A stretch of 64,000 nucleotides of DNA from Parasphingorhabdus sp. (GCA_039978835.1 JBDWAQ010000005.1:586631-650630), one strand, 5' to 3'; counted from the stretch's first letter, positions 8,283 to 49,923 are shown. Notes: a model not told the origin generated them from the letters alone. Translations and numbers: made by a program.

Positions 8283-8411
8283 GGGAGTGGCCTTTCTTTT
8301 TTCGCTTGTTGCGAAATCTGATTTATCTTTGGCGCAGACATAGGGGCGGCTGCTCCAGTTTTCAATCGCGAGATTGCACAGAATGGTTGCGCGTGGCAAA
8401 TCTGAAAAACC

Positions 8412-9285: not shown

Positions 9286-9324
9286 GCCCCTGTGGTGGAA
9301 TTGGTAGACGCGCTCGACTCAAAA
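9286..9324 (+). pseudogene. 5' half of host tRNA-Leu(CAA), ending at the anticodon loop (attL)
   Basis: GCCCCTGTGGTGGAATTGGTAGACGCGCTCGACTCAAAA is followed by non-tRNA sequence (GGTTGAGTATAT). It pairs exactly with the 3' half at 63730-63783. Confidence 0.92.
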
Positions 9325-9477: not shown

Positions 9478-9562
9478 GCGGGCGTGGTGGAATTGGTAGA
9501 CGCGCGGGATTCAAAATCCCGTTCCGCAAGGAGTGTGGGTTCGATTCCCACCGCCCGCACCA
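9478..9562 (+). tRNA. Complete island-borne tRNA-Leu(CAA), copy A
   Basis: 85 nt. Acceptor GCGGGCG/CGCCCGC, anticodon stem CGGGA/TCCCG with loop TTCAAAA (CAA at 9512-9514), variable arm TCC-GCAA-GGA, T arm GTGGG-TTCGATT-CCCAC, encoded ACCA. Confidence 0.95.
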
Positions 9563-14944: not shown

Positions 14945-15453
14945 ACCGAACTGGGTCTGGTTCAATAATGTAAAAATGAACTTGCGGCCGGATGCCCGAC
15001 TTCCCTAGGCTTGACGAGCAAAGCACTTTCACGCGGCGTTTCCTTCTTATTACTGGGCGATCACCGTCCCCGCTCTACAATGCTCAATCCGAATGAATGT
15101 CGGTTTCCGCCCATTACCTGCCGTTGCAATGGGATCAGTAGAATGGCAGCCTCCTACCCCAATGTCTGTCGTTTCGCTGCCGCTCGAAGTGGGCCGATTG
15201 CACACTGTCTGCTGCGAGAGGCAGTGAAGCCATAAACTGCCATTCATCTAATACCACATTTGCAGACGTTCATTCCACGAAGATAAAGCAGTCGATATCG
15301 CATCGACGCGGACTTTCCGCATTCGCTGGTGACCTAGTCCAAATTGGCCCGGACCGCCGCAATCATCTGTTCACGCCCACTTTCATATTCGCCAAGGAAA
15401 GTATCAGGCGCATTGGATTGAATCTGTCTGATGCATCAGGCGTGGCCGGCGGC

Positions 15454-15647
15454 TTACAGTCGGTTCCAGCTTGCATCCGAAGCGCCGTAGAAGTACTCGC
15501 CGATCTTGCCGACGGTCTGGACACTGCCGTGGTCTGGACCGGCTTGGCCTCAATTCCCATGGTTTCGAGATCGTGGACCGTATCGGCACTGATGCCGAGT
15601 TCGACCTTGATCTGGTGGTTATTGTCACGCTTAAAACATCTCACCAT
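15454..15647 (-). pseudogene. Possible decayed C-terminal fragment of a gamma-glutamyltransferase-like gene
   Basis: HQIKVELGISADTVHDLETMG, then after a frameshift at about 15540 GPDHGSVQTVGKIGEYFYGASD. This resembles the GGT C-terminus; by-eye similarity only. Confidence 0.35.
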
Positions 15648-16071
15648 TCAATAGATTGGGCGCAGACTTTCAAGTATCATCTTGATGGTATTTTTGGCGT
15701 GTTCGACCTTTATCGCATCGTCGAGGAGTGGGATTATCTGATCAGGGCTCTCCCCAGCGGGACCTATACAGCACTCTGTCCTGGGCATCTAGAGCTGCGG
15801 TCCTGAGTGTGCGGTGTTCTTTTATTGGCGCGGCCCGCACTCTGGATCAGCGACAACGGATTGAAGTGCCGCCGGGCAGGCGACAGATCCCGCCTAAACC
15901 AGCGGCGCGGGAAACCAAATAGCAGGGACCTAGTTTGCAACAACAATGAATACTTTAGAACGAGCAAGGAAATCTCGGAAGAGCTTCAAAACCATATGGA
16001 ATTTAGTGTACCGTCAATGTCGTCAATCTAAGTTTGTCACAAAAAGCAACTACAATGATGATCAGTACAAT

Positions 16072-16722
16072 TTAAATTTCATAATGGGCAGAGGTTTTGG
16101 TTGCCACGTTTTCTGTTGAGACCCCGGGAGCCAGCTCTACTAATTTGAACGAGTTTTGGTGGTCGGCGCGTTGCATGACGCATAAATCACTTATGATCAT
16201 ATCCACGACATTTTGCCCGGTCAGTGGCAGCGTGCACTCGGGAATGAGTTTTGGACTGCCGTCCTTGGAACAGTGATCCATGACTACGATGATTTTTTTC
16301 ACACCGGCGACCAGGTCCATGGCGCCGCCCATCCCTTTGACCATCTTGCCCGGTATCATCCAATTGGCAATATCTCCGTTTTCGGCAACCTGCATCGCGC
16401 CCAGCACGGCGAGATCAATATGACCACCGCGGATCATCGCAAAACTGTCGCCGCTCGAGAAGAAGCTCGATGTTGGTAGTGCACTGACGGTTTGTTTCCC
16501 GGCGTTGATCAAGTCCGGGTCTTCCTCGCCCTCAAATGGGAACGGCCCGATACCGAGCATCCCATTTTCCGATTGCAGAGTTACCTCGACTCCATCGGGA
16601 ATATGATTGGCCACCAGCGTCGGAATACCAATACCCAGATTGACATAAAAACCATCCTGCAATTCCTGCGCGGCCCGCGCCGCCATTTCATCGCGTGTCC
16701 AACCTTTTTGCAATACAGTCAT
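16072..16722 (-). CDS. 3-oxoacid CoA-transferase subunit B (ScoB/PcaJ-like)
   Basis: [15 protein letters not shown] (catalytic Glu) and GMGGAMDLV motifs. Confidence 0.92.
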
Positions 16723-16974
16723 CCATCGTCCTTCCCGACCATTTGTACAGGGTCTTTCAATGGCACATGAATAGCCCAGCGGTCCTGTGCAGGATAGATC
16801 GACACAGCCAAATATCGTTCAGATCATGCGCTCAAAAAACTAATCCGAAGTCGCAGGATAACGGGGTGAAATGCAGCTCCTTTAGCGAATCTAATCCGGC
16901 ATAAGAGAAAATCTAAGATGCAATATGGGTTGAGTCCGATCATTGTGACGAGGTGTATTTTGGGTGATGGGATA

Positions 16975-18090
16975 ATGGCGAAAATCGACAATATCAGGGT
17001 GGTCATTGCGGATATTCCGACCATTCGCCCACATGTACTCGCCATGACCACGATGATGTCGCAAACCATGGTGCTGGTTTTTGTCCGGCGTGATGATGGC
17101 ATTGTCGGGGTAGGTGAGGCCACAACCATAGGCGGGCTAGCCTATGGAGAAGAAAGCCCGGAAAGCATCAAGACCAATATCGATACCTATTTTGCACCAA
17201 TGTTGATCGGGCAGGATGCCGATAATCCGGCGGCGGCTATGGCGCGGCTCGCCGGACTAATCGTCGGTAATCGCTTTGCCAAATGTGCGATAGAAACCGC
17301 GCTGCTGGATGGATTGGGTCAAGCAAAGAACCGGCCGGTGAGTGCCTTGTTGGGTGCGGTACAGCATGAAAAACTGCCGATTGCCTGGACGCTCGCCAGC
17401 GGCAATACCGAAGAGGATATAGAGGAAGGCGAGCGTGTTTTGAGCGCGCAGCTCCACAGGGATTTCAAACTGAAAATCGGCACGCGCAATGTTGCTGATG
17501 ACTGTGCTCATGTTGCGGCCATCGCCCGCGCTTTCGAAGGACGAGCCAGCATTCGGGTTGATGTGAATCAGCATTGGACTCGGGAACAGGCTGACGAGGG
17601 CGCAGCGCTGCTGCAAGATGCTGGCGTTGATCTGATCGAGCAACCTCTGGTTGGTCATGATGTCGCGGGGATGAAGGCGTTATGCGATCAGTTTGATATC
17701 GCGATCATGGCGGATGAGGCTCTGACCGGACCGGTCAGCGCGCAGCGTTTTGCGGATGAACAGGCCGCCGATGTCTTTGCCCTCAAAATCGCGCAATCGG
17801 GAGGCTTGACGGCTGGACGCGAAGTGGCTGCCATCGCGAATAGCGCCGCCATCGCGCTGTATGGCGGGACGATGCTGGAAGGGGCGGTCGGGACCGCTGC
17901 GTCGGCGCACCTGTTTGCCACACTGGGCCCGATGCAATGGGGAACGGAGTTGTTTGGTCCATTGCTGATGACTGAAGAAATACTGGAAGAGTCGCTCGAA
18001 TATGGTGACTTTTCACTCAGCGTACCGGCCGGGCCGGGGTTGGGAGTAAAAGTGGATGAGGACAAATTGGCGCGATTTGCCCGCAGCTGA
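16975..18090 (+). CDS. catB: Muconate cycloisomerase
   Basis: Enolase superfamily: GEATTIGGLAYGEESPE, FKLKIG, RVDVNQ, IEQP, MADE and LYGGTMLE. Start set at ATG 16975. Confidence 0.93.
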   Translation: MAKIDNIRVVIADIPTIRPHVLAMTTMMSQTMVLVFVRRDDGIVGVGEATTIGGLAYGEESPESIKTNIDTYFAPMLIGQDADNPAAAMARLAGLIVGNRFAKCAIETALLDGLGQAKNRPVSALLGAVQHEKLPIAWTLASGNTEEDIEEGERVLSAQLHRDFKLKIGTRNVADDCAHVAAIARAFEGRASIRVDVNQHWTREQADEGAALLQDAGVDLIEQPLVGHDVAGMKALCDQFDIAIMADEALTGPVSAQRFADEQAADVFALKIAQSGGLTAGREVAAIANSAAIALYGGTMLEGAVGTAASAHLFATLGPMQWGTELFGPLLMTEEILEESLEYGDFSLSVPAGPGLGVKVDEDKLARFARS

Positions 18091-18104
18091 CAGACAAGGA
18101 GAAG

Positions 18105-18392
18105 ATGATGTTGTTCATGGTAGAGATGGTAGTGAATCCACCGCTGGATATCGACAAGGATGAATTTGAAGCGTTGAAAGCGACGGAAAAGGCGCGCGCG
18201 GAAGAACTGCAGAATAGTGGAAAATGGCGACATTTATGGCGGGTGACAGGGCAATATGCCAATGTCAGCATTTTCGATGTTGCCGACGCGCAGGAACTAC
18301 ATGACATTATGATGAGCCTGCCGCTTTATCCCTTCATGGATGTGCACGTCACATCACTTTGCCAGCATCCATCCGCAATTGAACAGATTTAA
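18105..18392 (+). CDS. catC: Muconolactone delta-isomerase
   Basis: MLFMVEM...GKWRHLWRVTGQYANVSIFDV...LPLYPFM...HPS, located between catB and catA. Confidence 0.93.
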   Translation: MMLFMVEMVVNPPLDIDKDEFEALKATEKARAEELQNSGKWRHLWRVTGQYANVSIFDVADAQELHDIMMSLPLYPFMDVHVTSLCQHPSAIEQI

Positions 18393-18406
18393 TCAGGAGA
18401 GCAATC

Positions 18407-19294
18407 ATGACTGACATAGTAAAAGGCGCAGCCGTTCAGGATCTTCTCGATCGCGCTAGCGGACTGAGCGAGGATGATAGCACGCCCCGCCTGAAGGCGA
18501 TCACCCGGGACCTGCTGGAAGCCATCATGGCTATTGTTGAGAAGCACGATATTACCGAAAGTGAATTTTGGGAAGCCACGGCCTTTTTGCAGGGCGGGGC
18601 AGAGGAATTTGGTTTAATCGTCCCCGGTGTCGGACTGGAGCATTTTCTGGATCTGCATATGGATGCCAAAGATGCTGAAAATGGCTATGAAGGCGGGACG
18701 CCCCGCACCATTGAGGGACCTCTTTATGTTGAAGGCGCACCGCTGGCAGAAAATGGTGTGAATCTCTCCACCGACCCGGATGATACCGAAACATTGACCA
18801 TGTCCGGAGTATTACGCGGACCGGATGGTGAACCGGTAAAGGATGCCATCCTGCATGTATGGCATGCCAATTCCAAAGGTTTCTATTCGCACTTCGATCC
18901 AACCGGTGAACAATCACCGTTCAACAATCGCCGCCGTATCCAGTTGGGCGATGACGGGCGCTATGCGTTTGAATCGAAAATGCCGCGCGGTTACAGCTGT
19001 CCTCCTGGCGGTGCGACCGAGAAGCTGATGCAGCTGCTTGGTCGTCATGGCGACCGGCCGGCCCATGTGCATTTCTTTGTTGAAGCTCCCGGTTACCGCG
19101 CATTGACCACGCAGATTAATTTCGGAGATGACCCGCTGGCCCGCAGCGATTTCGCTTTCGGGACACGAGATGGTTTGTTGCCTGTGCCAAATCGAGATGG
19201 CGATACCGCCCATGTCGAATTTGATTTCGAGCTTCAGAAAGCCAAATCATCGGACGATGAAAAATTCTCAGCTCGACCGCGTTTGAGCGCTTAG
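18407..19294 (+). CDS. catA: Catechol 1,2-dioxygenase
   Basis: GTPRTIEGPLYV, WHANSKGFYS and RPAHVHF intradiol dioxygenase motifs. Confidence 0.93.
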   Translation: MTDIVKGAAVQDLLDRASGLSEDDSTPRLKAITRDLLEAIMAIVEKHDITESEFWEATAFLQGGAEEFGLIVPGVGLEHFLDLHMDAKDAENGYEGGTPRTIEGPLYVEGAPLAENGVNLSTDPDDTETLTMSGVLRGPDGEPVKDAILHVWHANSKGFYSHFDPTGEQSPFNNRRRIQLGDDGRYAFESKMPRGYSCPPGGATEKLMQLLGRHGDRPAHVHFFVEAPGYRALTTQINFGDDPLARSDFAFGTRDGLLPVPNRDGDTAHVEFDFELQKAKSSDDEKFSARPRLSA

Positions 19295-20002
19295 ATGGTA
19301 CAGAAAGTCTTTGATAATCCGGAAGCTGCTCTGGAGGGCGTGCTGTTCGATGGCATGACAATAATGTCCGGCGGTTTTGGTCTTTCGGGAAACCCGGAAA
19401 GCCTGATCCCTGCCATTCGGGACGTGGGCGTCAAGGACCTGACAATAATCTCGAACAATTGCGGAGCGGATGGCTTTGGGCTGTGGATGTTGCTCAATAA
19501 TGGTCAGATCAAAAAGATGATCAGCTCTTATGTCGGTGAGAATAAACTTTTTGAAAGCCTGTATCTGGAAGGCAAGCTGGAACTGGAGCTCAGCCCGCAA
19601 GGAACATTGGCTGAGCGTATTCGTGCCGGTGGTGCCGGAATTCCAGCGTTCTTTACCAGGACCGGCGTTGGAACAGTGGTTGCTGAAGGGAAACCGGTCG
19701 AAGAGTTTGACGGGGAGCTTTATGTGCGCGAGAAATGGCTGCGTGCGGATTTGTCGATCATAAAGGCATGGCGTGCGGACACGGCCGGTAATTTGATGTT
19801 CCGCAAAACTGCGCGTAACTTCAATCCCAATATGGCAACCGCGGGGAAAGTGACAGTGGTGGAAGTGGAGGAGATTGTTGAACCCGGAGCATTCGATCCG
19901 GACTGCATCCATATTCCCGGCATTTATGTCGACCGGATCATTCAAAGCACGATCAACGAGAAACGCATCGAAAAGCTGACCACAAGGCCGCGACCGGTAT
20001 GA
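19295..20002 (+). CDS. 3-oxoacid CoA-transferase subunit A (ScoA/PcaI-like)
   Basis: SGGFGLSGNPE, PQGTLAERIRAGGAGIPAF and KTARNFNP motifs. Confidence 0.92.
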   Translation: MVQKVFDNPEAALEGVLFDGMTIMSGGFGLSGNPESLIPAIRDVGVKDLTIISNNCGADGFGLWMLLNNGQIKKMISSYVGENKLFESLYLEGKLELELSPQGTLAERIRAGGAGIPAFFTRTGVGTVVAEGKPVEEFDGELYVREKWLRADLSIIKAWRADTAGNLMFRKTARNFNPNMATAGKVTVVEVEEIVEPGAFDPDCIHIPGIYVDRIIQSTINEKRIEKLTTRPRPV

Positions 20003-20793
20003 CGGCGGGCAGCTTCCTCACCGACGACGGTTGCCGGATAGTCTATGATTATCAGCCCCGGACAGGCACACCGGTTATTCTGTTCTCTCCTTCGCTAGGT
20101 ACGGCAATGGCGCTTTTCGACGCGCAGGCAGAGGCGTTGGGAGCGCATTTTTCCGTGCTGCGCTATGATATGCGTGGCCATGGCGCATCCGATGCACCGG
20201 ATGGCGGCTATGCAATGGACCGGCTGGGCAGGGATGTTGTCGAGCTGCTTGATCATCTCGAGATTGAAAAAGCGCATTTTCTGGGCGTTTCGCTGGGCGG
20301 TATGACCGGACAATGGTTAGGTTACCGCGCGCCGGAGCGGATTGATCGGCTGATACTGGCCAATACTTCGGCCTATATGGGACCCCCGGCCGGCTGGGAG
20401 GATCGCATCGCGGCGGTTCTGGAAAGTGGGATGGGGCCGATGGTTGAACCGGTTCTGGAGCGTTGGTTCACACCAGATTTTCGGGAGTCCGGCGATGCAG
20501 CAGTAGAGAAAATAGGCCAGCTTCTGGAACGGACCAAAGCGACGGGCTATGCCGGTTGTTCTGCTGCCATTCGGGACATGGATATGCGCCCGATCCTGTC
20601 GTTGATTTCTGTTCCTACCTTAGTCGTTGCGGGACTCAGAGACCCGGCAACACCGCCGGAACATGCACAGTATCTCGCAAATAATATTCCGGATGCAAGT
20701 TTCGTTGAACTGAATGCCGCGCATCTTAGCAACGTTGAGTTACCTGACGAGTTCTCGGTTGCAGTGCGCAATTTTCTGGGGGTTCCATCGTGA
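19999..20793 (+). CDS. pcaD: 3-oxoadipate enol-lactonase
   Basis: YDMRGHG, GVSLGG and AAHLSNVE motifs; in the cat operon. Confidence 0.88.
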   Translation: MTAGSFLTDDGCRIVYDYQPRTGTPVILFSPSLGTAMALFDAQAEALGAHFSVLRYDMRGHGASDAPDGGYAMDRLGRDVVELLDHLEIEKAHFLGVSLGGMTGQWLGYRAPERIDRLILANTSAYMGPPAGWEDRIAAVLESGMGPMVEPVLERWFTPDFRESGDAAVEKIGQLLERTKATGYAGCSAAIRDMDMRPILSLISVPTLVVAGLRDPATPPEHAQYLANNIPDASFVELNAAHLSNVELPDEFSVAVRNFLGVPS

Positions 20794-21968
20794 CCGACCT
20801 CAAACAGGATTTTCTGCAAGGCATGAGCTTTGCGGCCGCGACCGTCAACATTGTGACGACCGGCGGTCCAGCTGGGCGCTCTGGTGTGACTGTCTCGGCC
20901 ATGTCATCGGTATCGGCGGACACGGAAAACCCGACATTGCTCGTCTGTGTCAATGATGCCAGCTCTGGCGCTGCGCCGATCATGGAAAATGGGGTGTTCT
21001 GCGTGAATATCTTGCGTGATGATCAATCGTTTATTTCAGACACATTTGCCGGGCGCTATGGTGACAAAGGCGAAGCCAAATTTGCGTGCGGGAATTGGCA
21101 GGAATTAGCCACTGGCGCACCTGCGTTGGAAAACGCGCTGGTTTCGTTTGACTGCCGCCTGACCAATGACGTGGTCGTTGGAACCCATCATGTGTTCTTC
21201 GGTGAAGTACAGGCGATGAAACTCGCGGATACGGGCTTGCCGCTGATTTACGCCAATCGTTCCTATGGTACCCCTTTCAGCTTACCCAATGCCGCACTCG
21301 AAAAATCCTCCCGACAGGAGAAAGTGGACAGGGTCAGGCTCGGTTGCCTCAATTCCTTCGGCCCATTTATACTGCCCGAGCTGCTGACCGGTATTCAAAA
21401 AAAGCAACCGTCCCTGCAGATTGAAGTGATCGAAGGGGATCAGGCGCAGGCGGTTGATGCAGCAGCCAGTCACGATGTGGATTTTTCGATCGTTTATGAT
21501 CGGCATTTGCCGGATAGTTTATCTGTAAAACCGCTGGCCGAGCTGCGACCCTATATTCTGCTTCCCGAAAGTCATATTTTGGCGAACGAGAAATCCGTTT
21601 CATTGGCGCAGCTTCAAACAGATCCGCTCATTCTTCTCGATGCACCACTCAGTCGCGAATATTTCCTGTCGCTATTTGAGGCCGCCGGTCTGAAACCTCA
21701 AATCGGAATGCGAACGTCGTCGTTTGAGCTGGTTCGTTCGATGGTGGCCAATGGTGCGGGCTATGCGTTGCTAGTGACCAAGCCAGCCAATATGATGAGT
21801 TATGATGGCAAGCCGTTGGTCACCAAACAGATTACCGATGATGTCGAAAAAATTGGCATCTCAATCGCCGGCCGTGCCGACACTGATCTGTCCGAAGCGG
21901 CAAAATCGGTCGAATTATATTGTCAGGAATATTTTGCGGAACTGCGAAACAGTAACAACACACCCTAG
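20790..21968 (+). CDS. Flavin reductase (IacG/HpaC-like) fused to a LysR substrate-binding domain, no HTH
   Basis: About aa 1-160: GRSGVTVSAMSSVS...PTLLVCVN...GTHHVFFGEV...PLIY. After a linker of about 25 aa comes a LysR effector domain (RLGCLNSFGPFILPELL...EGDQ...DFSIVYD...LVRSMVANGAGYALL). Confidence 0.8.
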   Translation: MTDLKQDFLQGMSFAAATVNIVTTGGPAGRSGVTVSAMSSVSADTENPTLLVCVNDASSGAAPIMENGVFCVNILRDDQSFISDTFAGRYGDKGEAKFACGNWQELATGAPALENALVSFDCRLTNDVVVGTHHVFFGEVQAMKLADTGLPLIYANRSYGTPFSLPNAALEKSSRQEKVDRVRLGCLNSFGPFILPELLTGIQKKQPSLQIEVIEGDQAQAVDAAASHDVDFSIVYDRHLPDSLSVKPLAELRPYILLPESHILANEKSVSLAQLQTDPLILLDAPLSREYFLSLFEAAGLKPQIGMRTSSFELVRSMVANGAGYALLVTKPANMMSYDGKPLVTKQITDDVEKIGISIAGRADTDLSEAAKSVELYCQEYFAELRNSNNTP

Positions 21969-22711
21969 CGCAGATACAGTCCGCCATTGACGTCATAGGT
22001 TGCACCTATGGCCGATACTGCAGCAGGGTCGGCCAATAACAGAACCAGCTTTGCGATATAATCGGGATCGCCGAGAACACCGGCGGGAATGGATCTGGTT
22101 ACGGCTTCCAACTTGTCGGGCGGCAGCAGGGAGCGAACGGAATCCAGGTCCAGCGGCCCTGGCGATATTGCATTGACGGTCACGCCATCGGCGGCGAGAT
22201 CGCGGGCAAAGACCTTGGTGAGAGTCATGATGCCGCCCTTGGACGCTGCATAGTGGGCGCCCGTTGCCGCGCCACCATTTTGACCGGCCAAAGAGGCCAT
22301 ATTGATGATCCGTCCATAGCCGCTTTCACGCATATGCCGTCCCAGCACCTGACAGCCGACAAACGTACCTTTCAGCGCAATTGCGGTAACTGCGTCAAAT
22401 TCTTCGGGAGAAATGTCGAACAGCGGCGTTGTTTTTGTCAGTGCCGCGTTGTTGATTAGAACGCCGACACCGCCCCATTTTTCGCTGGCCAGTTCTACGA
22501 CCGCACGAAAGCTCTCGGGATCGCGCACGTCCAATATGGTGGTTGTTACCTCTCCGCCTATCTCCGCCGCAGCAGATTCAAGACCACTGGCATCAACATC
22601 AGTCATGACAACCCGATATCCTGCACCAGCAAGGCGATTGGAGATTACCGCACCCAGTCCGCCTGCGGCCCCGGTGACAATAGCCACGTTATGATGCGCG
22701 GGTATCGTCAT
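21965..22711 (-). CDS. iacE: Short-chain dehydrogenase of the IAA pathway
   Basis: TGAAGGLG, NNAA and YAASKGG motifs; position directly after the dioxygenase beta subunit. Confidence 0.8.
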   Translation of the reverse strand: MTIPAHHNVAIVTGAAGGLGAVISNRLAGAGYRVVMTDVDASGLESAAAEIGGEVTTTILDVRDPESFRAVVELASEKWGGVGVLINNAALTKTTPLFDISPEEFDAVTAIALKGTFVGCQVLGRHMRESGYGRIINMASLAGQNGGAATGAHYAASKGGIMTLTKVFARDLAADGVTVNAISPGPLDLDSVRSLLPPDKLEAVTRSIPAGVLGDPDYIAKLVLLLADPAAVSAIGATYDVNGGLYLR

Positions 22712-23196
22712 AGCAAAAAAGTTATCCCGGCAAGGGCGTCCGTAGAGTTTATCAAACGCACGATTTTCCGGACGACTTTAAAGCTATCGCCGTAAGGTCG
22801 TAAAGACCATGTAACGTTGGCCGCATAGATACCATGCTTGTCGAATTTATACTGCACCAGATTTTGTGCACAGCGAATATGGATGTTGTCGTCGCCGTCA
22901 TTTTCAAGCCGGCGAAACCGTGAAACCGTACGCAATGTGTGGGCCGCGTGAGCAGCCGACATCGATTGCCCGCTGGACAATCTGCGTACGCGCATGTCGC
23001 GCATGGCGCCGCCGTCATAGGCATAATTCAGACTATTCTCGAAATCCGTTTCGAGTGGATCAATCGGGATGATATATTTCCCGTCATCGTCCCACAATGT
23101 GAGCCATTCCTGATAGTCCTTCTGGTCGAGCAAATCCGCCTCAAACCAGATAAATTCTGCTGCGGCGGCCAGATCGGTTTTCAGCTTCTGGTTCAT
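22708..23196 (-). CDS. iacD: Aromatic ring-hydroxylating dioxygenase beta subunit
   Basis: EFIWFEADLLD...WLTLW...YIIP. ATGA overlap with the alpha subunit. Confidence 0.85.
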   Translation of the reverse strand: MNQKLKTDLAAAAEFIWFEADLLDQKDYQEWLTLWDDDGKYIIPIDPLETDFENSLNYAYDGGAMRDMRVRRLSSGQSMSAAHAAHTLRTVSRFRRLENDGDDNIHIRCAQNLVQYKFDKHGIYAANVTWSLRPYGDSFKVVRKIVRLINSTDALAGITFLL

Positions 23197-24428
23197 GCGA
23201 CCATCATCCTTTTCCACATTTGATAGGCGGCCCGCATCCCGGTTTCAGCGGTTACATCGCCGGCATTGGTGGTGGTTTTGTCCTCTCCGCGATTGAGCAT
23301 GATCCAGATGTCATCCTCTCCGGCTTCGGAACCGCGCTGGACACGCTCCCATGCTTCCGCATCATCGGGCGTACCAAAGCCCATGGGTCCCTGAAAATGT
23401 TCGTGCAGCCGCAGCCGTGCCTGATTGGCTGCAGCCGGGCCGCCGTCCATGCCAATGGCGATATGGCGAATTTCGGTTTCCTCGACCGAAAGGGGTCGCA
23501 GCACCCGGAAAAAGGCCATGGAACAGGCCAGATTGGGAAACAGGTTGACGTTGAATCCGGTTCCGGTGACCGCGCGAACGATCCGACGAACTTCCTCTTC
23601 GCTATGATCCTGACGCAAATCTTCCGCCAGTTCGGCAAAGCGTTCTGGAATGGGATCATCAAGATTGGCTTCCAGATCCACCAGTTCGGGGATCATCACC
23701 ATGACGCTGTGACCATTGCCAAGATCTTCGACATAGCCGCCTGCATCCATAAAGGAAAATAGCTGTTCCGTGTCGCCATCCAGCGAGGTCAGGAAGCTTT
23801 TGTGAACCACCGGAAAATGATAGGCGTCGGTGGTGTTCTCCAGCTGGATTTTCCAGTTACCAGGGAAGGTAAACTTATGTTCACCCATGGTTTTGACCGG
23901 AAACCCGCCGCCCTGTTTCATGAACAGGTCGATCCACGGTTTTGCCCGACCCAAAAATTCATCGAGCGGTTGTACATCATCATTCATGGTCGCAAAGATC
24001 AGACCATTATAGCTTTCGGTCCGCAGCGTGATCAGGCCATATTCCGACTTGTCAAAATCCTTATAGCCTTTGGGCAAAGGCAAGCCTTTCAGGCTTCCAT
24101 CCTGTCCATAAGTCCACGCGTGGTAGGGACAGACAAAGCCAACCGCATTGCCCTTCTTATGCTCGCAAATCGTCGCGCCGCGATGGCGGCAGCGGTTGAG
24201 CATCACGCGTATTTCACCCTTTTTGTCGCGATTGACGATCACTGGCTGGCGGCCAATATGAGTGGTTACAAAGTCACTGGGATTGGGCAGTTCGCTTTCA
24301 TGAGCAACCCAGACCCAGGTCTGGTTGAAGATGCGATCAATCTCTTCCTCAAAAATTGCAGGATCTTTGTAAAGTGATGTGTGAACGCGATCTGGTTTCA
24401 CAAGGTCTTCATAGGACACGGATGTCAT
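23193..24428 (-). CDS. iacC: Rieske ring-hydroxylating dioxygenase alpha subunit
   Basis: CRHRG...CPYH Rieske ligands and DAYHFPVVH mononuclear-iron motif; cluster context. Confidence 0.88.
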   Translation of the reverse strand: MTSVSYEDLVKPDRVHTSLYKDPAIFEEEIDRIFNQTWVWVAHESELPNPSDFVTTHIGRQPVIVNRDKKGEIRVMLNRCRHRGATICEHKKGNAVGFVCPYHAWTYGQDGSLKGLPLPKGYKDFDKSEYGLITLRTESYNGLIFATMNDDVQPLDEFLGRAKPWIDLFMKQGGGFPVKTMGEHKFTFPGNWKIQLENTTDAYHFPVVHKSFLTSLDGDTEQLFSFMDAGGYVEDLGNGHSVMVMIPELVDLEANLDDPIPERFAELAEDLRQDHSEEEVRRIVRAVTGTGFNVNLFPNLACSMAFFRVLRPLSVEETEIRHIAIGMDGGPAAANQARLRLHEHFQGPMGFGTPDDAEAWERVQRGSEAGEDDIWIMLNRGEDKTTTNAGDVTAETGMRAAYQMWKRMMVA

Positions 24429-24961
24429 TTTATCGCTCCATCTTTTGAATTATCTGGTACCGGAATATCTTCGGCGTCGGTCCAGCGATCGACACGACGC
24501 GCAAAAATATTGGTGCTGCGGAAACGGGAAATACGCCACGTGCCATCTTCATTCCGGAAATCGATATTCAGACAGGCACTACGCAAATCCGATTTGTCAT
24601 CTGCATAAGTCGAACATTGGAGCATCATCCAGGCACCGCTTGCAGTGGCGCCGGAGACCTGAATATCTTCCGCAGAAAAGAAATGGCCGGTCATCGCAAA
24701 ATGTGGGTCGGGCGCGCAATAACTACCAATCATGGCGACAATCGCGTCGCGGCCTTGATAACCACCAAAGGCCTTTGCATATCGCCCCTTGCCTTCCCAC
24801 AAGGCATCGATCGTGAACAATTCGCCCAGATCATCCAGCGGAGTGTCCGGTCCCAGATCATCGCAGATCTGGAAATAGCGCGCCATCAACTGCCGGATTG
24901 CACTTTCCGATTCCAATCGCTCCAAACGTTGGCTCAGGTCCGAAAGAGAGATGTCACTCAT
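24425..24961 (-). CDS. iacI: SnoaL/NTF2-like protein
   Basis: RLESESAIRQLMARY...LFT.DA.W.G pattern; lies between iacB and iacC as in iacHABICDE clusters. Confidence 0.72.
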   Translation of the reverse strand: MSDISLSDLSQRLERLESESAIRQLMARYFQICDDLGPDTPLDDLGELFTIDALWEGKGRYAKAFGGYQGRDAIVAMIGSYCAPDPHFAMTGHFFSAEDIQVSGATASGAWMMLQCSTYADDKSDLRSACLNIDFRNEDGTWRISRFRSTNIFARRVDRWTDAEDIPVPDNSKDGAIK

Positions 24962-25317
24962 TCAGGCATCACCAGTTCGCGGCCAATGCGGGCTTCGACG
25001 CGCATATATTTCCATAAGCGATAGTCACTCACTTCGGTGGTGCGAAACAGGTTACAGGCTTCTACAACGGTTTCACGCGTGTCGACATGGGCCAATATGT
25101 AAAAGGTCCATGGAAAACCGGTTGGCGATGTGCCGACCATGGTTTCATCATCATCCATCGTGCCAATCACTTCGACACCAGGGATCTCGCGCATGATACG
25201 GAGCATTTTTCCGGTCGCTTTCAAAACGTCCATGATATCTGCGGAGGGCAGATCAAAAAACGATTGCAGTACTGCACCGCAAAAGAGCACACGTAGTTTT
25301 TCAGGTTGGTCATTCAT
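24958..25317 (-). CDS. iacB: IacB-family protein
   Basis: 119 aa, LRVLFC...FFD...DDDETMVG...FPWTFYIL...LWKY..VEARIGR, directly after iacA. Confidence 0.78.
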   Translation of the reverse strand: MNDQPEKLRVLFCGAVLQSFFDLPSADIMDVLKATGKMLRIMREIPGVEVIGTMDDDETMVGTSPTGFPWTFYILAHVDTRETVVEACNLFRTTEVSDYRLWKYMRVEARIGRELVMPE

Positions 25318-25348
25318 CAGTCGATCCTTTGTCTGTTATGCTGTTCGC

Positions 25349-26494
25349 TTATGGATATCCCGGAGGCGCTCCGTTGCCGAGCAATACGGAGCCGCCCGAT
25401 TGCCAAGTTTCATCGTTCATAAAGGCGTGCTGGGCGACAACCATCGCGTCTTGCACGTGACGGGATAGCGGGTGTGTGTTGAAGATACCGGTAGTGCCCG
25501 ACATCTCGAAAGCGCGGCGCGTGACATCGGCGCCAACGCGTGCCGCATTGGTTGATGCAATGCGGATCATCGCCAGTTCCTTTTGCGACAACTCGTCGCC
25601 AGCGACAATCACCTCCCACGCCTTTTCAGTCACTTCATAGAACCACGCCCGAGCTGACCCCAAAGCGGCTTCCATTTGCGAATAAGCGATCTGAAAATTG
25701 GGTCGATCCGACATGGACGGTGCGCCGGTGATGGAATTTTTACGGGTGGCGAGGCGGACGATCTCATCAATGGCCTCACGTGCGACACCCAATCCGACAA
25801 CCGCGAGCACTTGTGCGGCAATGCCCATGCTTGGGTAACGATAGGCCGGTGTATCGATGGTTGGTGCGGCGCCGCGAATGAGCGTATAATGCTCGGGGAC
25901 AAGAACGTTATCTACAACCAGATCATGACTGCCGGTGGCCAGCATGCCCATAACGTCCCAGTTTTCCTCGATTGAAATTTTGCTGCGCGGCATGACGGCC
26001 ATACGCGGCAGGCCTCCACCTTCGCCTTCGATCTTTATACCAACGCCGATCAGCGAGGCACCCATTGAACCGCTGCCAAAGCCCCAACGGCCTTTGACCC
26101 GGTAGCCACCTGCTTCCTTGACCGCCAATTGTGGCGGGAAAACCGCACCGGCAAAGACGATATCAGGTGTATCGGCATATATTTCAGCCAGTGTGTCGGC
26201 GGGAAGCGAGGAGAGATATTTGGTTGCAAAGCCAAAGCTGGCAACCCAACCGGTCGATCCATCGGCGGAGGAAATTTGCTCAATCACGCGAAGGAATTCC
26301 ATTGGCGTCTTCTCGGTTCCGCCAAATTGTTTCGGAACAAAGGCGCGATAAATTCCGGCAGACTGAAACCGCTCGATGATATCCTGTGAGATATGCCCCT
26401 GCTCATGAAATTCCGAACGCCGTGCGCGGATATCATCCAGCAGAGCGGAAAAATCGCTATCCTGATCTTCTTCCTTCAGTTTCACTACGCTCAT
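25349..26494 (-). CDS. iacA: Flavin-dependent monooxygenase, acyl-CoA dehydrogenase fold (indole-3-acetate oxygenase)
   Basis: GIYRAFVPKQFGG, DGSTGWVASFG, W.VMGMLATGSHD motifs. Start set at ATG 26494 after GAGGAG. Confidence 0.82.
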   Translation of the reverse strand: MSVVKLKEEDQDSDFSALLDDIRARRSEFHEQGHISQDIIERFQSAGIYRAFVPKQFGGTEKTPMEFLRVIEQISSADGSTGWVASFGFATKYLSSLPADTLAEIYADTPDIVFAGAVFPPQLAVKEAGGYRVKGRWGFGSGSMGASLIGVGIKIEGEGGGLPRMAVMPRSKISIEENWDVMGMLATGSHDLVVDNVLVPEHYTLIRGAAPTIDTPAYRYPSMGIAAQVLAVVGLGVAREAIDEIVRLATRKNSITGAPSMSDRPNFQIAYSQMEAALGSARAWFYEVTEKAWEVIVAGDELSQKELAMIRIASTNAARVGADVTRRAFEMSGTTGIFNTHPLSRHVQDAMVVAQHAFMNDETWQSGGSVLLGNGAPPGYP

Positions 26495-26507
26495 ATTCTC
26501 TCTCTCC

Positions 26508-27641
26508 TCATCCTTCAATCGGCACCAGGCCAGCAAGCGCGCAAAGCGCTTCGTCCTGGTTCATTTTTCCCACAAGCTGCATGGCAACCGGACTTCCCTC
26601 AATCTCTCCGATGGGAAGCGATATGGCCGGATGCCCTGACAGATTAAACGGACGGCATGTTGTGGTAATGGGAATGGCTGCTGCAGCATCCTTCGCCGCG
26701 ATCAATGTGGGTACGGGGCAAGGCATGCTTGGCAGGACCAGCGCGTCGACCAGTTCCAATGCGGCATCAACCTGGGCGCGAAAAGCGATCCGGATATCCT
26801 CCGCTTTTTGTAATTGTGCATCGGTAATCTGTTTCGCAGCGGTCAGCCGATCGGCAACATCCTGCCCGACCTGTCCTGTTTCCAGCAAGTGAGCAAAGGC
26901 ATTTGCAGTTTCATGTCCGATGATTTTCATGCCCGCATCGACGGCATCCATGAACAAAGGTAACGTAACTTCAGTAACATTGAAAATCGCCTTGGCCTGC
27001 TTCCGGACCATGTTCGCAATCGGCGCATCGGATTGGGTCGTCACAAAACCAACGCGTCCCGGTGTAATGGGACCTACCGGTTTCCAATTCGGGACCAGTA
27101 TTGCCATGGCCCGGGCAATCATATCAACCGACATGGCAAAGGGGCCGATGCAATCCAGGCTGCTTTTATCTGGCACGGCGCCAATCCTGCTAACCCGTCC
27201 ATATGTGGGTTTCAGGCCGGCAATACCGCAACATGTGGCAGGTACGCGGATCGAGCCGCCAGTATCTGTACCAATCGCGAAGTCGACGATATTGGCGGCG
27301 ACCGCAGCAGCAGATCCACTAGAGGAACCACCCGGGATCAGATCAGGATATCTGGGGTTTATCGGAGTCCCGGTCCAATGATTGACGCCGGTGACACCAA
27401 AGGCCAGCTCATGCATATTGGTGCGACCGATCAATCGGCAGCTTGCGGTTTCAAGAGCTGAGATAACATCGGCTGAATCATTTGCGGGTTCAGCATTGGA
27501 AAGAGCCTCGCATCCTCCGCCGGTCACTTCGCCTTTGCGGTTGAGAACGTCCTTGTATGCGACGCGCAGTCCATCCCCTGAAGCAGGAAATTGCTCCAGA
27601 AAAATGACTGATTGATCGCACATTAAGGCCATAGCTGTCAT
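26508..27641 (-). CDS. iacH: Amidase-signature family protein
   Basis: [14 protein letters not shown] and [12 protein letters not shown] (Ser-cisSer-Lys triad); first gene of the iac operon. Start uncertain. Confidence 0.78.
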
Positions 27642-27770
27642 TGGCTCCCAATATTTCAATGGCCCTGTACGGCCATTCAACAGAAGCAACATAAACCATC
27701 ACAGCACTATCGGGACATGAGTTCTACTTATGCGGTTGCCTGAATCTATTTTGTTCCAGGCTGGGAAAAA

Positions 27771-29108
27771 TCAAGGGCAGCGTGTTTCCTCGCATTTGAA
27801 AACTTCGCCATTTTTCATTACGAATTTCACCGATTGTAGCGTTGAAATATCGGTGAGAGGGTTTCCTTCAACGGAAATGATGTCAGCCAGTTTTCCCACT
27901 TCCAGTGTCCCGAGATCTTTGCTTTTGTCAATCAAATCGGCGGCATGTACTGTTGCTGACTTGATCGCATCGGATGCGGGCATTCCGGCCTTAACGTAAA
28001 AAACGAGTTCATCTGCATTTTTACCATGCTTCGTTACACCAGCATCGCTTCCAGCAGCAATTTTTACACCTGCTCGATAGGCCGCCATGAAGTTCTTGGC
28101 ATGACCATCAATGAAACCTTGCATTACAGTGCGCATTGGACCTTGCGCCTTCTTTAACCCTGCACGGACGTTATTTTCGACAACTGCTGTTGTAGGGACC
28201 AGGAAGCCACCGTTCCTTTTCAAAATGTCTCTCGCCTCTTGTGGCATAAAAGAACCATGTTCGATTGAATCAGCTCCGGCTTTTACCGAGCGTAAAATAC
28301 CGTCACTGGCATGGCCATGAGCCGCAACCCGCATCTGGCGCGAACGGGCGGTTGCGATTATCGCATCCAATTCATCGTCTAGAAATATTCCCGGAGCATC
28401 TTTCTGACCACAAGGTTTGCTGCCGCTGCAAGTGGCATAGATTTTTATGAGATCGGCGCCCATATCAATTTGCCGGCGAACCGCACGGCGGCAACCTTCC
28501 ACGCCGGAACACGCGCCCGGATCATCACCGGAACCGGGATGAAGTGTGTGCATGGCCGTTAAAATCCGTGGTCCATCAATTCGGCCAGCATTGATTGCCT
28601 GTTTTAGTGCCGGTATATGCCATCCGAAGCTGCCAACATTGCGTACAGTTGTATAGCCAGCCATCAGCGTTTTGTTGGCATAGCCAATTGCATTGATCAT
28701 CCCGGAAACATCATCTTTTTGGTTTTTATCAAGTCCGGCGATTTCATCTGCTACGCCTCTTAGTTTGAAATCATTGGCATCATACTGAAAAGAAAGATGC
28801 ACGTGCATGTCCATCAGACCGGGTAGAACAAACCGGTCCTTCATATCGATGACATGGTTATCATCTTCATTGTCCTGCGGCGGTGAAACAAACCCGTCTG
28901 CAATCGATTCAATGCGGTCGTTGCGAACTATAATGGTCTTGTTTGACAGCACGGATTGGCCAGGTTCAGCTAGCAACTGGCCTGCATGGACATATGTCAC
29001 CCGGTCCGGTTTCTCAGCCTCCGTCTGTTCGGCATCTTCCGCCTCAGCCATTGCGGGAGAGGACAGGATTGTCGCAGCAACAAGTGCACTGGCCAAAATA
29101 TTTCTCAT
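27771..29108 (-). CDS. Secreted metal-dependent amidohydrolase (Xaa-Pro dipeptidase-like)
   Basis: Signal peptide, PGLMDMHVH, GADLIKIYA, AAHGH, IEHG and AGSDAG motifs. Confidence 0.85.
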   Translation of the reverse strand: MRNILASALVAATILSSPAMAEAEDAEQTEAEKPDRVTYVHAGQLLAEPGQSVLSNKTIIVRNDRIESIADGFVSPPQDNEDDNHVIDMKDRFVLPGLMDMHVHLSFQYDANDFKLRGVADEIAGLDKNQKDDVSGMINAIGYANKTLMAGYTTVRNVGSFGWHIPALKQAINAGRIDGPRILTAMHTLHPGSGDDPGACSGVEGCRRAVRRQIDMGADLIKIYATCSGSKPCGQKDAPGIFLDDELDAIIATARSRQMRVAAHGHASDGILRSVKAGADSIEHGSFMPQEARDILKRNGGFLVPTTAVVENNVRAGLKKAQGPMRTVMQGFIDGHAKNFMAAYRAGVKIAAGSDAGVTKHGKNADELVFYVKAGMPASDAIKSATVHAADLIDKSKDLGTLEVGKLADIISVEGNPLTDISTLQSVKFVMKNGEVFKCEETRCP

Positions 29109-29109
29109 A

Positions 29110-32100: not shown

Positions 32101-32322
32101 AAACTTCGGTCGGCTCAATTCAGTGCCGAATTCTGTCAAGGATTTTGCAGCCCCGCCGTTCGCGTTCGCGATCCAGATCTTGTCGGCATAAGCAAATGTT
32201 ATCTGGTCTTGATGGATATCGGGATACCGAGCCAGTCCGATATTTTTGGCTGCACTTGGAAATGAAATACAAAGTAGCGAAGATATTATGGCTGAGTATC
32301 CAAGTTGTTTGGAATATGGCAT
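29110..32322 (-). CDS. Tricorn-like S41 family peptidase
   Basis: Signal peptide, beta-propeller repeats (FSTDG, WSPDG), PDZ-like region, GYIYVPN, IIDERFNTGG, SGGD and IGERTWGG motifs. Confidence 0.88.
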   Translation of the reverse strand: MPYSKQLGYSAIISSLLCISFPSAAKNIGLARYPDIHQDQITFAYADKIWIANANGGAAKSLTEFGTELSRPKFSTDGSQIAFSAKVDGNLDIYVIPAAGGEPKRITHHPAKDYALDWSPDGTGVLFASTMSSPRAVYNQLHIVPAQGGLPKKLPVPYGETATYANDGKTILYSYLRDFQEEAWKRYRGGRAPDLWSYDPVTGSGNQLTNHEASDSTPMQVGDAVYYLTERDDNGRSNIWRLGQDGQEPVQVTHFTDTDVRRPSADGRQIIFEAGGQLYRLDPSTKSSPERISLSTEMDMVKWKPKQQKVADRISNAAINGDGDVVIEARGDIFRYKGRKKNAANITQSSGSAERYPQISADGRVAYFSDSDGEYALYVRSSDGVERKVADFGPGLRYNPYWSPDGKRVALMDYQQVLWLVDIETGIKTRVDQGKWWFHWDLGTLPIAWSPDSRWISYANGLDNRNHAIFAYEIETARKHQLTSGLYNDFSPVFDDSGNYLMFLSNRNFSATYGDFIVDATWTYTNSVAAVILPLNPAVPSPGSEDWAMPGKPERVTISPRNAERRLALLGAKPGNIAALAATDDGYALLRQGDRSQGTKSILEKYVFGSDKPVTLQEETQLSLASAAGPYMLTKADKKLFIVNTAKKGKVKALKTDGLTATVDRQAEYRQMFADAWRYPRDFYYDPTIHGVDWNAVRSRYEALLPYAYIDDDLTFIVREMEGELEGGHVYASATAPRRRSDADNVGLLGIDFVPDGDVYRVGKIIRTGNRHLEHHSPLDDPALAINEGTVILAVNDKPITTATNPWQPFEGLADKTVELRIASSPDGSDARTVKVKTLKSERKLRELVWVEENRKKVEKASGGRIGYIYVPNTGREGQNELMIQYRSQIDKDALIIDERFNTGGALGDRFVELLNRPPLIYFRARNSTSYPLPENAFRGPKAMLINGWSYSGGDGFPLLFKTAKLGPLIGERTWGGLIGPGLSLPLINGGFISAPPIRVATVNGKWAEGNEGVRPNIEVANDPAQLANGVDQQLDRAIAEMMKQLENYQPVPAPEFQKAGEWNPDKRSK

Positions 32323-32748
32323 AGAATCTGGTTCCTCAATGCTACTTATACCCGCAGTGCCGGGTTCGGCATTTTCCTTGTTGCGGACCATATTGTCGAC
32401 TGAAACCAACTGACAATCAAATACTGCTCATTGGATATATCAGCGCAGGTAATGACCCAACCAGTTTCGTAAAATTGAACTCGATACAGCCGAGAACTCT
32501 GCAAATCAGTCTGTTTGGAGTGCATGAGTAATATTGTTGTCAATCCCATGAGGACAGGTAATGCAGAGTGCAAATTTATCTAGATTGTGGTTTCGATGCC
32601 TCCATTCGTAAATTGCAGGCAATGACTGATGCGGCGTTTTCGGCATCTTATCCAAGTTTAGGCCGGGGCAACAAAAGCATCAGTCAGCAAACCAGTTTGG
32701 AATTGTCGGTGCGGTCGGAGAACCGTATTGGCGCTTAGGGAGGTTAAT

Positions 32749-35247: not shown

Positions 35248-35384
35248 TCCAACACCAATGGCGATGAGCGTCTCCATTTAAACGTCTTGCGTGATGATCG
35301 CATGAAGGAATTCTCATCCCGGGAATCGTTCATGCGGTCATTGCGATATAAAGCGCCCGCGACATGGAGTTTTGGGAGAGTGAA

Positions 35385-45048: not shown

Positions 45049-45075
45049 CCTACAATGTTGTGGAGCGGTTGAACA

Positions 45076-48775: not shown

Positions 48776-48792
48776 GATATTCCTCTATCCGC

Positions 48793-49920: not shown

Positions 49921-49923
49921 CGA

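Follow-up and report, generated by a model that had tools for sequence, protein, structure and literature searches.

A Sphingomonadales-type iac-cat-pca cassette with a putative effector-gated flavin reductase in Parasphingorhabdus

Described iac loci and the Parasphingorhabdus gene block

Bacteria that degrade indole-3-acetate (IAA) influence the growth of plants and algae. In published surveys, a linked MarR regulator (a two-component system in Pseudomonas) counts as part of the locus, and the reference iac clusters include IacF. The closest described systems, the iac locus of A. baumannii (iacR / iacHABICDEFG) and those of P. putida 1290 and Marinomonas (PMC11373566), share seven genes, arranged in identical order, with the block described here. 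Beyond these seven genes, the A. baumannii locus includes iacF, iacG and a divergent MarR gene. IAA degradation has been established by experiment in the genus Acinetobacter, and Sphingomonas strains that carry iac-like operons also degrade IAA (PMC11630574). The iac-like cluster of N. aromaticivorans pNL2 is also a sphingomonad iac set devoid of iacF; its IacB and IacA are 70% and 53% identical to those reported here, but it differs by its gene order, a plain 150-aa flavin reductase, a nearby AraC regulator and the lack of adjacent cat genes.

The window, i.e. the whole stretch of 64,000 nucleotides that was analysed, originates from a marine sphingomonad, Parasphingorhabdus sp. Its gene map was built from an ORF listing and from Pfam and NCBIfam scans (Table 1). 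The first-pass annotation had described iacHABICDE on the minus strand converging on catBCA, pcaI, pcaD and a reductase fusion, and the map confirms this arrangement; that annotation left unnamed pcaJ, which lies within its limits, and ended the block at 27641, whereas the start codon of iacH lies 51 nt further on. Apart from pcaF, the genes required for the beta-ketoadipate pathway in its catechol branch (catA, catB, catC, pcaD/catD and pcaIJ) are present. The catB, pcaD, pcaI and pcaJ products exceed the curated family cut-offs, whereas that of catA falls below its own yet displays both dioxygenase domains. The pcaD gene overlaps each of its neighbours by 4 nt. IacA requires reduced flavin.

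Table 1. Coordinates and supporting matches of the features of the block and of a thiolase gene outside it
Feature	Position	Strand	Evidence and remarks
pcaJ, 3-oxoacid CoA-transferase subunit B	16072-16722	-	PF01144; TIGR02428 320 bits, cut-off 243.55; cassette left edge
catB, muconate cycloisomerase	16918-18090	+	TIGR02534 507.8 bits, cut-off 334.95
catC, muconolactone delta-isomerase	18105-18392	+	PF02426 E 1e-38
catA, catechol 1,2-dioxygenase	18407-19294	+	Dioxygenase_C/N; TIGR02439 319.7 bits, below equivalog cut-off 392
pcaI, CoA-transferase subunit A	19295-20002	+	TIGR02429 256 bits, cut-off 128.5
pcaD, 3-oxoadipate enol-lactonase	19999-20793	+	TIGR02427 298.7 bits, cut-off 255.85
Flavin reductase/LysR-effector-domain fusion, putative IacG equivalent	20790-21968	+	PF01613 residues 14-160; PF03466 residues 176-381
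iacE, SDR	21965-22711	-	adh_short; 48% identity to A. baumannii gene at iacE position
iacD, Rieske oxygenase beta subunit	22708-23217	-	PF00866; 50% identity to A. baumannii
iacC, Rieske oxygenase alpha subunit	23193-24428	-	Rieske + Ring_hydroxyl_A; 67% identity to A. baumannii
iacI, SnoaL-like	24425-24961	-	PF13577; 41% identity to A. baumannii
iacB	24958-25317	-	52% identity to A. baumannii, 70% to N. aromaticivorans pNL2
iacA, ACAD-fold flavin-dependent monooxygenase	25349-26536	-	Acyl-CoA_dh_2; HsaA and C2-HPAH-type matches; 47% identity to A. baumannii
iacH, amidase	26508-27692	-	PF01425; 49% identity to A. baumannii; cassette right edge
Generic thiolase, outside cassette	7092-8399	-	Thiolase_N/C; best family acetyl-CoA C-acetyltransferase

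The genes for IacA, IacB, IacI, IacCD, IacE and IacH are all present and clustered, as judged from their domains and from collinearity with A. baumannii (7/7 genes in the order H-A-B-I-C-D-E, 41-67% protein identity). These matches support the earlier reading of the block as leading from IAA into the beta-ketoadipate pathway, and indicate that it is a Sphingomonadales-type iac-cat-pca cassette, i.e. a variant of a known pathway. The cluster could conceivably act on another indole or arylacetate, the assignment to IAA being then an error of homology. Indeed, neither an iac-specific curated family nor a solved structure was found as an anchor, and the identities to the A. baumannii proteins are moderate. 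However, this reading is very unlikely, as the seven genes are collinear with the iac locus of a genus experimentally shown to degrade IAA, as do Sphingomonas strains with iac-like operons (PMC11630574), and as IacB belongs to a family seen here solely in such clusters. IacB itself has no match in Pfam, NCBIfam or PDB, and its homologues were found in Acinetobacter, Burkholderia, Caballeronia, Rhodococcus and Novosphingobium. Several of these genera are known IAA degraders.

Mobility of the cassette and functions possibly supplied in trans

The sole close copy of the block was found in a metagenome-assembled genome of Parasphingorhabdus. The two sequences share only the region from 16164 (left border) to 27754 (right border), with 90.7% nucleotide identity; their flanks differ, and a transposase fragment lies at the border of the other copy. 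Furthermore, of 64 genomes of the genus, only 2 encode an orthologue of IacC, and the fusion was not found in 24 other Parasphingorhabdus genomes. Sequence comparison thus indicates that the block is a mobile, horizontally acquired cassette of 11.6 kb and that the cluster moves in this compact form into a marine genus.

Several functions expected from the reference loci are not encoded by this cassette. The first-pass annotation had noted that the window holds no gene for a ferredoxin or a reductase serving IacCD, and that the block holds neither an HTH-bearing regulator nor a 3-oxoadipyl-CoA thiolase; all three statements hold. The missing parts are likewise missing from the related Sphingomonadales loci examined, with the exception of one linked MarR gene, and not from this strain alone.

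Concerning regulation, the only HTH-bearing LysR of the window (46399-47316) lies about 19 kb away, no MarR is encoded in the window and the A. baumannii IacR query has no match in the genome. Among the related clusters examined, a single one (L150) carries a linked MarR gene, upstream of iacH. The number of promoter-like sites does not exceed that of shuffled sequence.

Concerning thiolysis, no pcaF was found in the cassette, and the best scores in the genome (299 and 289 bits) are far from the TIGR02430 cut-off of 597. The window does encode a generic thiolase 8 kb left of the block, of the acetoacetyl-CoA-thiolase type (about 290 bits against the same cut-off), which is a candidate for the missing step; none of 11 related Sphingomonadales loci has a homologue of it within 10 kb. 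A housekeeping thiolase would cleave 3-oxoadipyl-CoA.

The absence of IacF, an FNR-type reductase for IacCD with FAD_binding_6, NAD_binding_1 and Fer2 domains in A. baumannii-type loci, extends from the cassette and the window, where no ferredoxin, ferredoxin reductase or NAD_binding_1 gene was found, to the whole genome. The only two NAD_binding_1 proteins of the genome are a flavohaemoglobin and a PNPOx fusion, no reductase-sized ORF of the genome displays a Fer2 domain, and the A. baumannii IacF query gives no tblastn match in the genome or in the 11 related loci. A genome search for partners, as the first-pass annotation had proposed, nevertheless identified plausible candidates encoded in trans: a ferredoxin reductase (G000:C5:733914-735125; best families HcaD and AndAa) and three small [2Fe-2S] ferredoxins (C7:4735, C8:20437 and C5:771811). 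In a related Sphingomonadaceae cluster (L105), fdx (119 aa), fdr (412 aa) and pcaJ are contiguous, 4 kb from the iac-cat-fusion operon, and the homologues of this pair in the Parasphingorhabdus genome are 57% (reductase) and 58% (ferredoxin) identical. They are unlinked orphan genes, probably housekeeping ones, in a genome encoding about eight Rieske proteins of oxygenase size. As the reductase is present in one copy in each relative examined, the tie of this pair to IacCD rests on the gene neighbourhood of one relative. Sphingomonad Rieske oxygenases commonly share unlinked electron-transfer components, and IacCD may draw its electrons from such partners, namely this ferredoxin reductase and one of the small [2Fe-2S] ferredoxins.

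The earlier annotation had left the choice between a pathway that borrows such host functions and one that stalls at the dioxindole stage. Borrowing is favoured because of the reductase and ferredoxins encoded in trans and of the fdx-fdr-pcaJ operon linked to a related cluster. Stalling is less likely because in two relatives (L039 and L105) the genes are arranged as iacHABICDE-catBCA-pcaI(J)D-fusion, all co-directional and contiguous, which makes sense only if catechol is produced. A truncated pathway, in which IacCD would be inactive, IAA would be converted only to 2-oxindole- or dioxindole-3-acetate (for detoxification or signal interference) and catechol from other sources would be the substrate of the cat and pca products, is an unlikely reading. 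It would fit the lack of an IacF-type reductase in the genome, the orphan status of the ferredoxin and ferredoxin reductase candidates, and one relative (L066) in which the cat-pca-fusion unit lies 31 kb away from iacA. However, besides the arrangement in these two relatives and the fdx-fdr genes linked to pcaJ in one of them, neither iacC nor iacD is disrupted, and both are highly conserved (98% from one Parasphingorhabdus copy to the other, 83-87% to other sphingomonads). Moreover, none of the related Sphingomonadales loci examined has IacF, some of them in genomes devoid of any NAD_binding_1 protein.

A flavin reductase fused to a HinK-type effector domain

In A. baumannii-type iac loci, as here, a flavin reductase gene follows the oxygenase genes. 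In A. baumannii, the product of the gene found where iacG is expected matches over its full length C1 (5zc2; E 1.9e-131), the reductase of the p-hydroxyphenylacetate hydroxylase (HPAH) of this species, which is effector-gated through a MarR-like domain (PMC11618861). In Parasphingorhabdus, the place of iacG is occupied by a fusion gene that, unlike its A. baumannii counterpart, ends a cat-pca operon physically joined to the iac genes. The product is a protein of 392 aa that shares 32% identity with the reductase portion of its A. baumannii counterpart, and its extra domain is of LysR type instead of C1/MarR type. A Flavin_Reduct domain (residues 14-160) is followed by a LysR_substrate domain (residues 176-381; PF03466 E 2e-34), the only sensor-like domain encoded by the block.

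This second domain aligns over its full length with the effector domain of HinK (PDB 3fzv and 6m5f; E 1.5e-39), which also provides the best Foldseek matches (34% identity). HinK (PA0218) is a LysR regulator of histamine/imidazole-4-acetate catabolism that senses imidazole-4-acetate, a heteroaryl-acetate, with a low affinity (1.56 mM; PMC8231116). The fusion has no HTH_1 match, and a flavin reductase (residues 1-160) replaces the winged HTH and linker helix of HinK; the protein therefore cannot bind DNA as LysR regulators do. In the AlphaFold (AF2) model, the linker (155-178) is disordered and no confident contact joins the two domains (pTM 0.56). C1-HPAH displays the same layout, in which a flexible linker joins a Flavin_Reduct domain at the N-terminus to a C-terminal domain that stems from the effector-binding region of a transcription factor (PDB 5zc2; PMC11618861), and its partner is an ACAD-fold oxygenase, as is IacA, which matches C2 (2jbr; E 9.5e-20). 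The sensor of the fusion nevertheless has a LysR periplasmic-binding-protein-like fold and not a MarR/NadR fold, and its allosteric activation is only putative.

The architecture is conserved in all 120 of the top matches listed, and the family was found in at least 447 loci or species genomes, often in hin-like clusters. The copies linked to iac or cat genes group in a single clade (SH-aLRT 100). Among 69 other loci, 31 encode a two-component monooxygenase of HpaB type within 10 kb of the fusion, mostly directly upstream, RidA and DUF1028 genes then following; a full-length HinK-like LysR is also encoded in 17 of these loci. Across two clades, 65 of 160 positions of the reductase domain and 30 of 207 of the effector domain are near-invariant, and both domains are under constraint. 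The effector-domain residues of the iac-linked and hin-linked clades are largely alike, with only 4 clade-specific positions, and do not show a ligand switch from imidazole-acetate to indole-acetate.

From these data, we infer that the fusion is an arylacetate-gated flavin reductase for IacA. It would stand in for IacG: its N-terminal HpaC/TftC-type domain would make reduced flavin for IacA, and its C-terminal HinK-like domain, deprived of any DNA-binding part, would bind an arylacetate, most likely IAA. Ligand binding would turn on flavin reduction only when the substrate is present, which would provide enzyme-level control to a mobile cassette devoid of regulator. Such a sensor is not required, since the pNL2 cluster works with its plain reductase.

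The Rieske N-oxygenase PrnD reportedly obtains reduced flavin from the flavin reductase PrnF. The fusion might likewise replace both IacG and IacF, its free reduced flavin reaching not only IacA but also the IacCD Rieske centre, which it would reduce: it is the sole redox-partner gene of the cassette and of most related clusters, and a 4-nt overlap couples its translation to that of the cat-pca operon. This dual role is improbable, given that one relative has a dedicated fdx-fdr pair beside its cluster and that the Parasphingorhabdus genome encodes homologues of this pair. Even less probable is a mainly regulatory function, in which the fusion would titrate a full-length LysR or join it in mixed oligomers, or sense the redox or flavin state, and thereby affect cassette transcription. 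LysR effector domains do mediate oligomerisation, and a full-length HinK-like LysR is encoded beside the fusion in 17 hin-type loci. However, the Parasphingorhabdus genome encodes no close HinK-like LysR (the proteins closest to the effector domain share 21-26% identity with it), conservation is stronger in the reductase domain than in the effector domain, and the fusion adjoins flavin-dependent oxygenases in both the iac-linked and the hin-linked contexts.

Implications for iac clusters and for the fusion family

Globally, the reading that we favour, with a probability of roughly 0.6, is that of an acquired 11.6-kb cassette that would convert IAA to catechol and then to 3-oxoadipyl-CoA, with a ferredoxin and its reductase encoded in trans, a housekeeping thiolase and an IAA-gated fusion acting as IacG. 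More tentatively, the Flavin_Reduct/HinK-type proteins (at least 447 species genomes) could be a large unstudied class of ligand-gated reductases, convergent with C1-HPAH, in which the sensor of a regulator was fused to a reductase; here, gating by IAA would replace transcriptional control and the fusion might feed both IacA and IacCD.

None of the Sphingomonadales iac-cat clusters examined has a linked IacF and one only, which is not this cassette, has a linked MarR; if the proposed role is confirmed, the scoring of 'incomplete' iac clusters in genome surveys would change. The fusion also suggests a testable design principle, a transcription-factor sensor grafted onto a flavin reductase so that reduced flavin (and H2O2) would be produced only in the presence of the substrate. 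If this is confirmed, the family would constitute ready-made arylacetate-responsive redox switches.

Organization and identity of the iac-cat block

The gene map drawn up by the first-pass annotation was confirmed by the ORF list and by scans with Pfam and NCBIfam profiles (see table). From catA through the gene encoding the flavin reductase-LysR effector fusion, neighbouring genes abut or share 4-nt overlaps, which indicates that they form one operon and are translationally coupled. The stop codons of iacE and of the 392-aa fusion gene overlap. When the cassette was scanned for promoters and terminators, sites were no commoner than in shuffled sequence. The only element retrieved by a search for operators shared with relatives is a short GCATA(A/G)G, located ~35 nt before the starts of catB and iacH; it was rejected as a shared operator and is read as a likely -10 region.

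Features of the iac-cat cassette and its surroundings (window positions)
Feature	Position	Strand	Evidence or remark
thiolase	7092-8399		acetoacetyl-CoA type
tRNA-Leu(CAA), 5' half	9286-9324		interrupted in anticodon loop
tRNA-Leu(CAA), intact	9478-9562		first copy
pcaJ	16072-16722	-	divergent, upstream of catB
catB	16918-18090	+	ORF list + Pfam/NCBIfam scans
catC	18105-18392	+	ORF list + Pfam/NCBIfam scans
catA	18407-19294	+	ORF list + Pfam/NCBIfam scans
pcaI	19295-20002	+	ORF list + Pfam/NCBIfam scans
pcaD	19999-20793	+	ORF list + Pfam/NCBIfam scans
fusion, 392 aa	20790-21968	+	Flavin_Reduct residues 14-160; LysR_substrate 176-381; no HTH
iacH-A-B-I-C-D-E	27692 down to 21965	-	convergent with cat-pca-fusion genes
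LysR	46399-47316		HTH-bearing
tRNA-Leu(CAA), intact	59045-59129		second copy
integrase remnant	59206-59550		after second intact tRNA copy
tRNA-Leu(CAA), 3' half	63732-63784		interrupted in anticodon loop

NCBIfam/Pfam and PDB searches retrieved no curated family and no solved structure for the Iac proteins, and the lack of any of them in the PDB makes a structure-anchored assignment impossible. Homologues of IacB were found by tblastn in Acinetobacter, Burkholderia, Caballeronia, Paraburkholderia, Rhodococcus and Novosphingobium, several of these genera being known degraders of indole-3-acetate (IAA). An Acinetobacter baumannii record carries the seven iac genes in the identical order H-A-B-I-C-D-E, their products being 41-67% identical to those of the window. 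Beyond the shared seven, this locus has three extra genes, encoding IacF (317 aa, with FAD_binding_6, NAD_binding_1 and Fer2 domains), IacG (a 318-aa flavin reductase) and IacR (a divergent MarR); this agrees with the iacABICDEFG layout published for Marinomonas (PMC11373566). IAA degradation has been demonstrated for Sphingomonas strains carrying iac-like operons (PMC11630574).

Two other genes of the window were considered as auxin genes of the IaaM/IpdC type and rejected: 39081-40655 encodes a CrtO-like FAD oxidase, and 49924-51570 a TPP enzyme similar to AHAS/AruI and not to IpdC. The latter belongs to a set of genes (43777-51570 and 40680-41834) encoding an AruI/AHAS-like TPP decarboxylase, a HisC-like aminotransferase, a StyD-like aldehyde dehydrogenase, a GcvA-type LysR, a ManD-like dehydratase and an MFS transporter. 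The set is syntenic, with 66-92% identity, with L066:11355-20656 of a Sphingomonadaceae genome, where it lies directly downstream of the fusion gene. This module could convert an amino acid to an arylacetate feeding the iac pathway.

Insertion site, mobility and regulation

The tRNA-Leu(CAA) gene is interrupted in its anticodon loop, and its two halves bracket a 54.4-kb insertion that includes the cassette; in a relative (G014; L141), the same flanks are joined by an intact tRNA-Leu(CAA). The insertion also holds two intact tRNA-Leu(CAA) copies, which are 94% identical to each other, the second being followed by an integrase remnant.

The closest copy of the cassette (L038) is found in an "uncultured Parasphingorhabdus sp." MAG (G080), labelled as the same genus as the window genome. 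Homology between the two is limited to window positions 16164-27754 (90.7% nucleotide identity), the flanks differ, and a DDE transposase fragment lies at the pcaJ border in L038. Furthermore, an IacC orthologue is present in only 2 of the 64 species genomes of the genus, and 24 other genomes of this genus lack the fusion. Taken together, the comparison of these sequences identifies the block as a mobile 11.6-kb cassette. In the window, a 1.1-kb stretch without convincing ORF (14945-16071) lies at the left border, which corresponds to the one with the transposase fragment in L038. To the right, 27771-36980 encodes an Xaa-Pro-dipeptidase-like amidohydrolase, a 1099-aa tricorn-type protease, a TonB-dependent receptor and a sulfatase.

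The absence from the block of a thiolase and of an HTH-bearing regulator, as first annotated, holds, the thiolase and LysR genes of the window both lying outside it. This thiolase is also outside the tRNA insertion, and no homologue of it occurs within 10 kb in any of the 80 fetched loci; no thiolase of the genome reaches the PcaF cut-off of 597 bits, the top scores being 299 and 289. Only one HTH-bearing LysR and no MarR are encoded in the window, and the window genome has no homologue of the A. baumannii IacR. In a related Altererythrobacter genome, a gene encoding an IacR-like MarR is located upstream of iacH, in divergent orientation. Homology between the Parasphingorhabdus cassettes stops 62 nt upstream of iacH, which is preceded in the window by two genes of the same direction (27771-32409, the amidohydrolase and tricorn-type protease genes), making read-through transcription into iacH possible.

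Electron supply to IacCD

The lack of iacF noticed initially in the block extends, according to profile and tblastn searches, to the whole genome. Only two proteins of this genome carry NAD_binding_1, and both were rejected as a hidden IacF, one being a flavohaemoglobin and the other a PNPOx fusion; none of the seven Fer2 matches lies within a reductase-sized ORF; and tblastn with the A. baumannii IacF gave no match, either in the window genome or in 11 related Sphingomonadales loci. Therefore, an IacF-type reductase is shown to be encoded nowhere in the window genome. IacF is likewise absent from every related locus examined, and two of five related genomes entirely lack NAD_binding_1 proteins.

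The first-pass annotation had proposed that the pathway either borrows host electron-transfer and thiolase functions or stalls at the dioxindole stage. In L105, from an uncultured Sphingomonadaceae genome, three genes form an uninterrupted run (L105:15156-17394) 4 kb beyond an iac-cat-fusion operon: fdx, encoding a 119-aa [2Fe-2S] ferredoxin, fdr, encoding a 412-aa ferredoxin reductase (Pyr_redox_2/Reductase_C), and pcaJ. The link to pcaJ, itself a gene of the pathway, provides the strongest argument so far that such a pair may serve IacCD. The L105 genome encodes a second ferredoxin reductase paralogue elsewhere. The genome search for partners suggested at the outset retrieved one homologue of the L105 reductase (57% identity; G000:C5:733914-735125, 83 kb right of the window; best families HcaD and AndAa) and three of the ferredoxin (58%, 46% and 42% identity). 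All four are orphan genes, and the same genome encodes about eight oxygenase-sized Rieske proteins. Stalling would fit poorly with L039 and L105, where iacHABICDE-catBCA-pcaI(J)D-fusion are contiguous and all in one direction, an order that would make sense only if catechol is produced. This gene order and the homologues of the L105 pair thus favour borrowing of trans carriers by IacCD, the first of the two proposals being probably mostly right.

The sensor-reductase fusion

The two-domain architecture is found in all of the best 120 database matches listed and is encoded at at least 447 loci of species-representative genomes, from Alpha- and Gammaproteobacteria and one Acidimicrobiia MAG. Its occurrence in hundreds of genomes led to rejection of an assembly or frameshift artefact. 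Literature searches for a flavin reductase-LysR effector architecture found nothing. In the AF2 model, both domains are confidently predicted and are joined by a disordered linker (residues 155-178). The reductase domain resembles TftC (46% identity) and CobR (40%). The best solved relative of the effector domain is HinK (3fzv/6m5f; E 1.5e-39 across the full domain, 34% identity, top Foldseek matches), a LysR regulator whose ligand is imidazole-4-acetate (PMC8231116).

In Sphingomonadales, the fusion gene is the last of the cat-pca operon, and the cat-pca-linked fusions form one clade (SH-aLRT 100 in a quick, midpoint-rooted tree). Among the 69 other loci, 31 carry an HpaB-type two-component monooxygenase gene within 10 kb, mostly directly upstream of the fusion, with RidA and DUF1028 genes after it and often an M20 hydrolase gene nearby (for example L048:381-5416, and L051, L054, L063 and L078 for the HpaB-like-fusion-RidA-DUF1028 order). 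Seventeen of these HpaB-linked loci also encode a full-length HinK-like LysR, 30-36% identical to the fusion effector domain. In terms of published gene functions, the arrangement would correspond to that of hinF-hinL-hinH-hinG, which serve imidazole-4-acetate degradation in Pseudomonas (PMC6467879, PMC8231116). The HpaB-linked loci resemble clusters for imidazole-4-acetate (histamine) catabolism into which a sensor-reductase is built.

A precedent for gating is provided by C1, the flavin reductase of A. baumannii p-hydroxyphenylacetate hydroxylase (HPAH), whose C-terminal MarR/NadR-like domain keeps it inactive as long as no oxygenase substrate is bound, saving NADH and avoiding H2O2 (PMC11618861). 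The iacG-position gene of A. baumannii NZ_CP064203 (L149:13480-14436) encodes a 318-aa two-domain protein that matches C1 (5zc2) over its full length (E 1.9e-131), so one iac locus already includes a reductase with a sensor domain. IacA falls into the ACAD-fold oxygenase group that also contains C2, the HPAH oxygenase. By analogy with C1, the fusion would be the IacG of the cassette, gated by an arylacetate. Both domains are under constraint in both the iac-linked and hin-linked clades. The effector domains of these clades differ at only four clade-specific positions, and Novosphingobium aromaticivorans pNL2 uses a plain reductase; both points count against the fusion being an arylacetate-gated IacG. 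The window genome also encodes, outside the window (G000:C5:351233-352081), a two-domain flavin reductase that is C1-HPAH-like and shares 36% identity, over 289 aa, with the product of the A. baumannii iacG-position gene. Globally, the block is a variant, not previously known, of a known pathway (iac), and the uncharacterised sensor-reductase fusion is its most interesting part.
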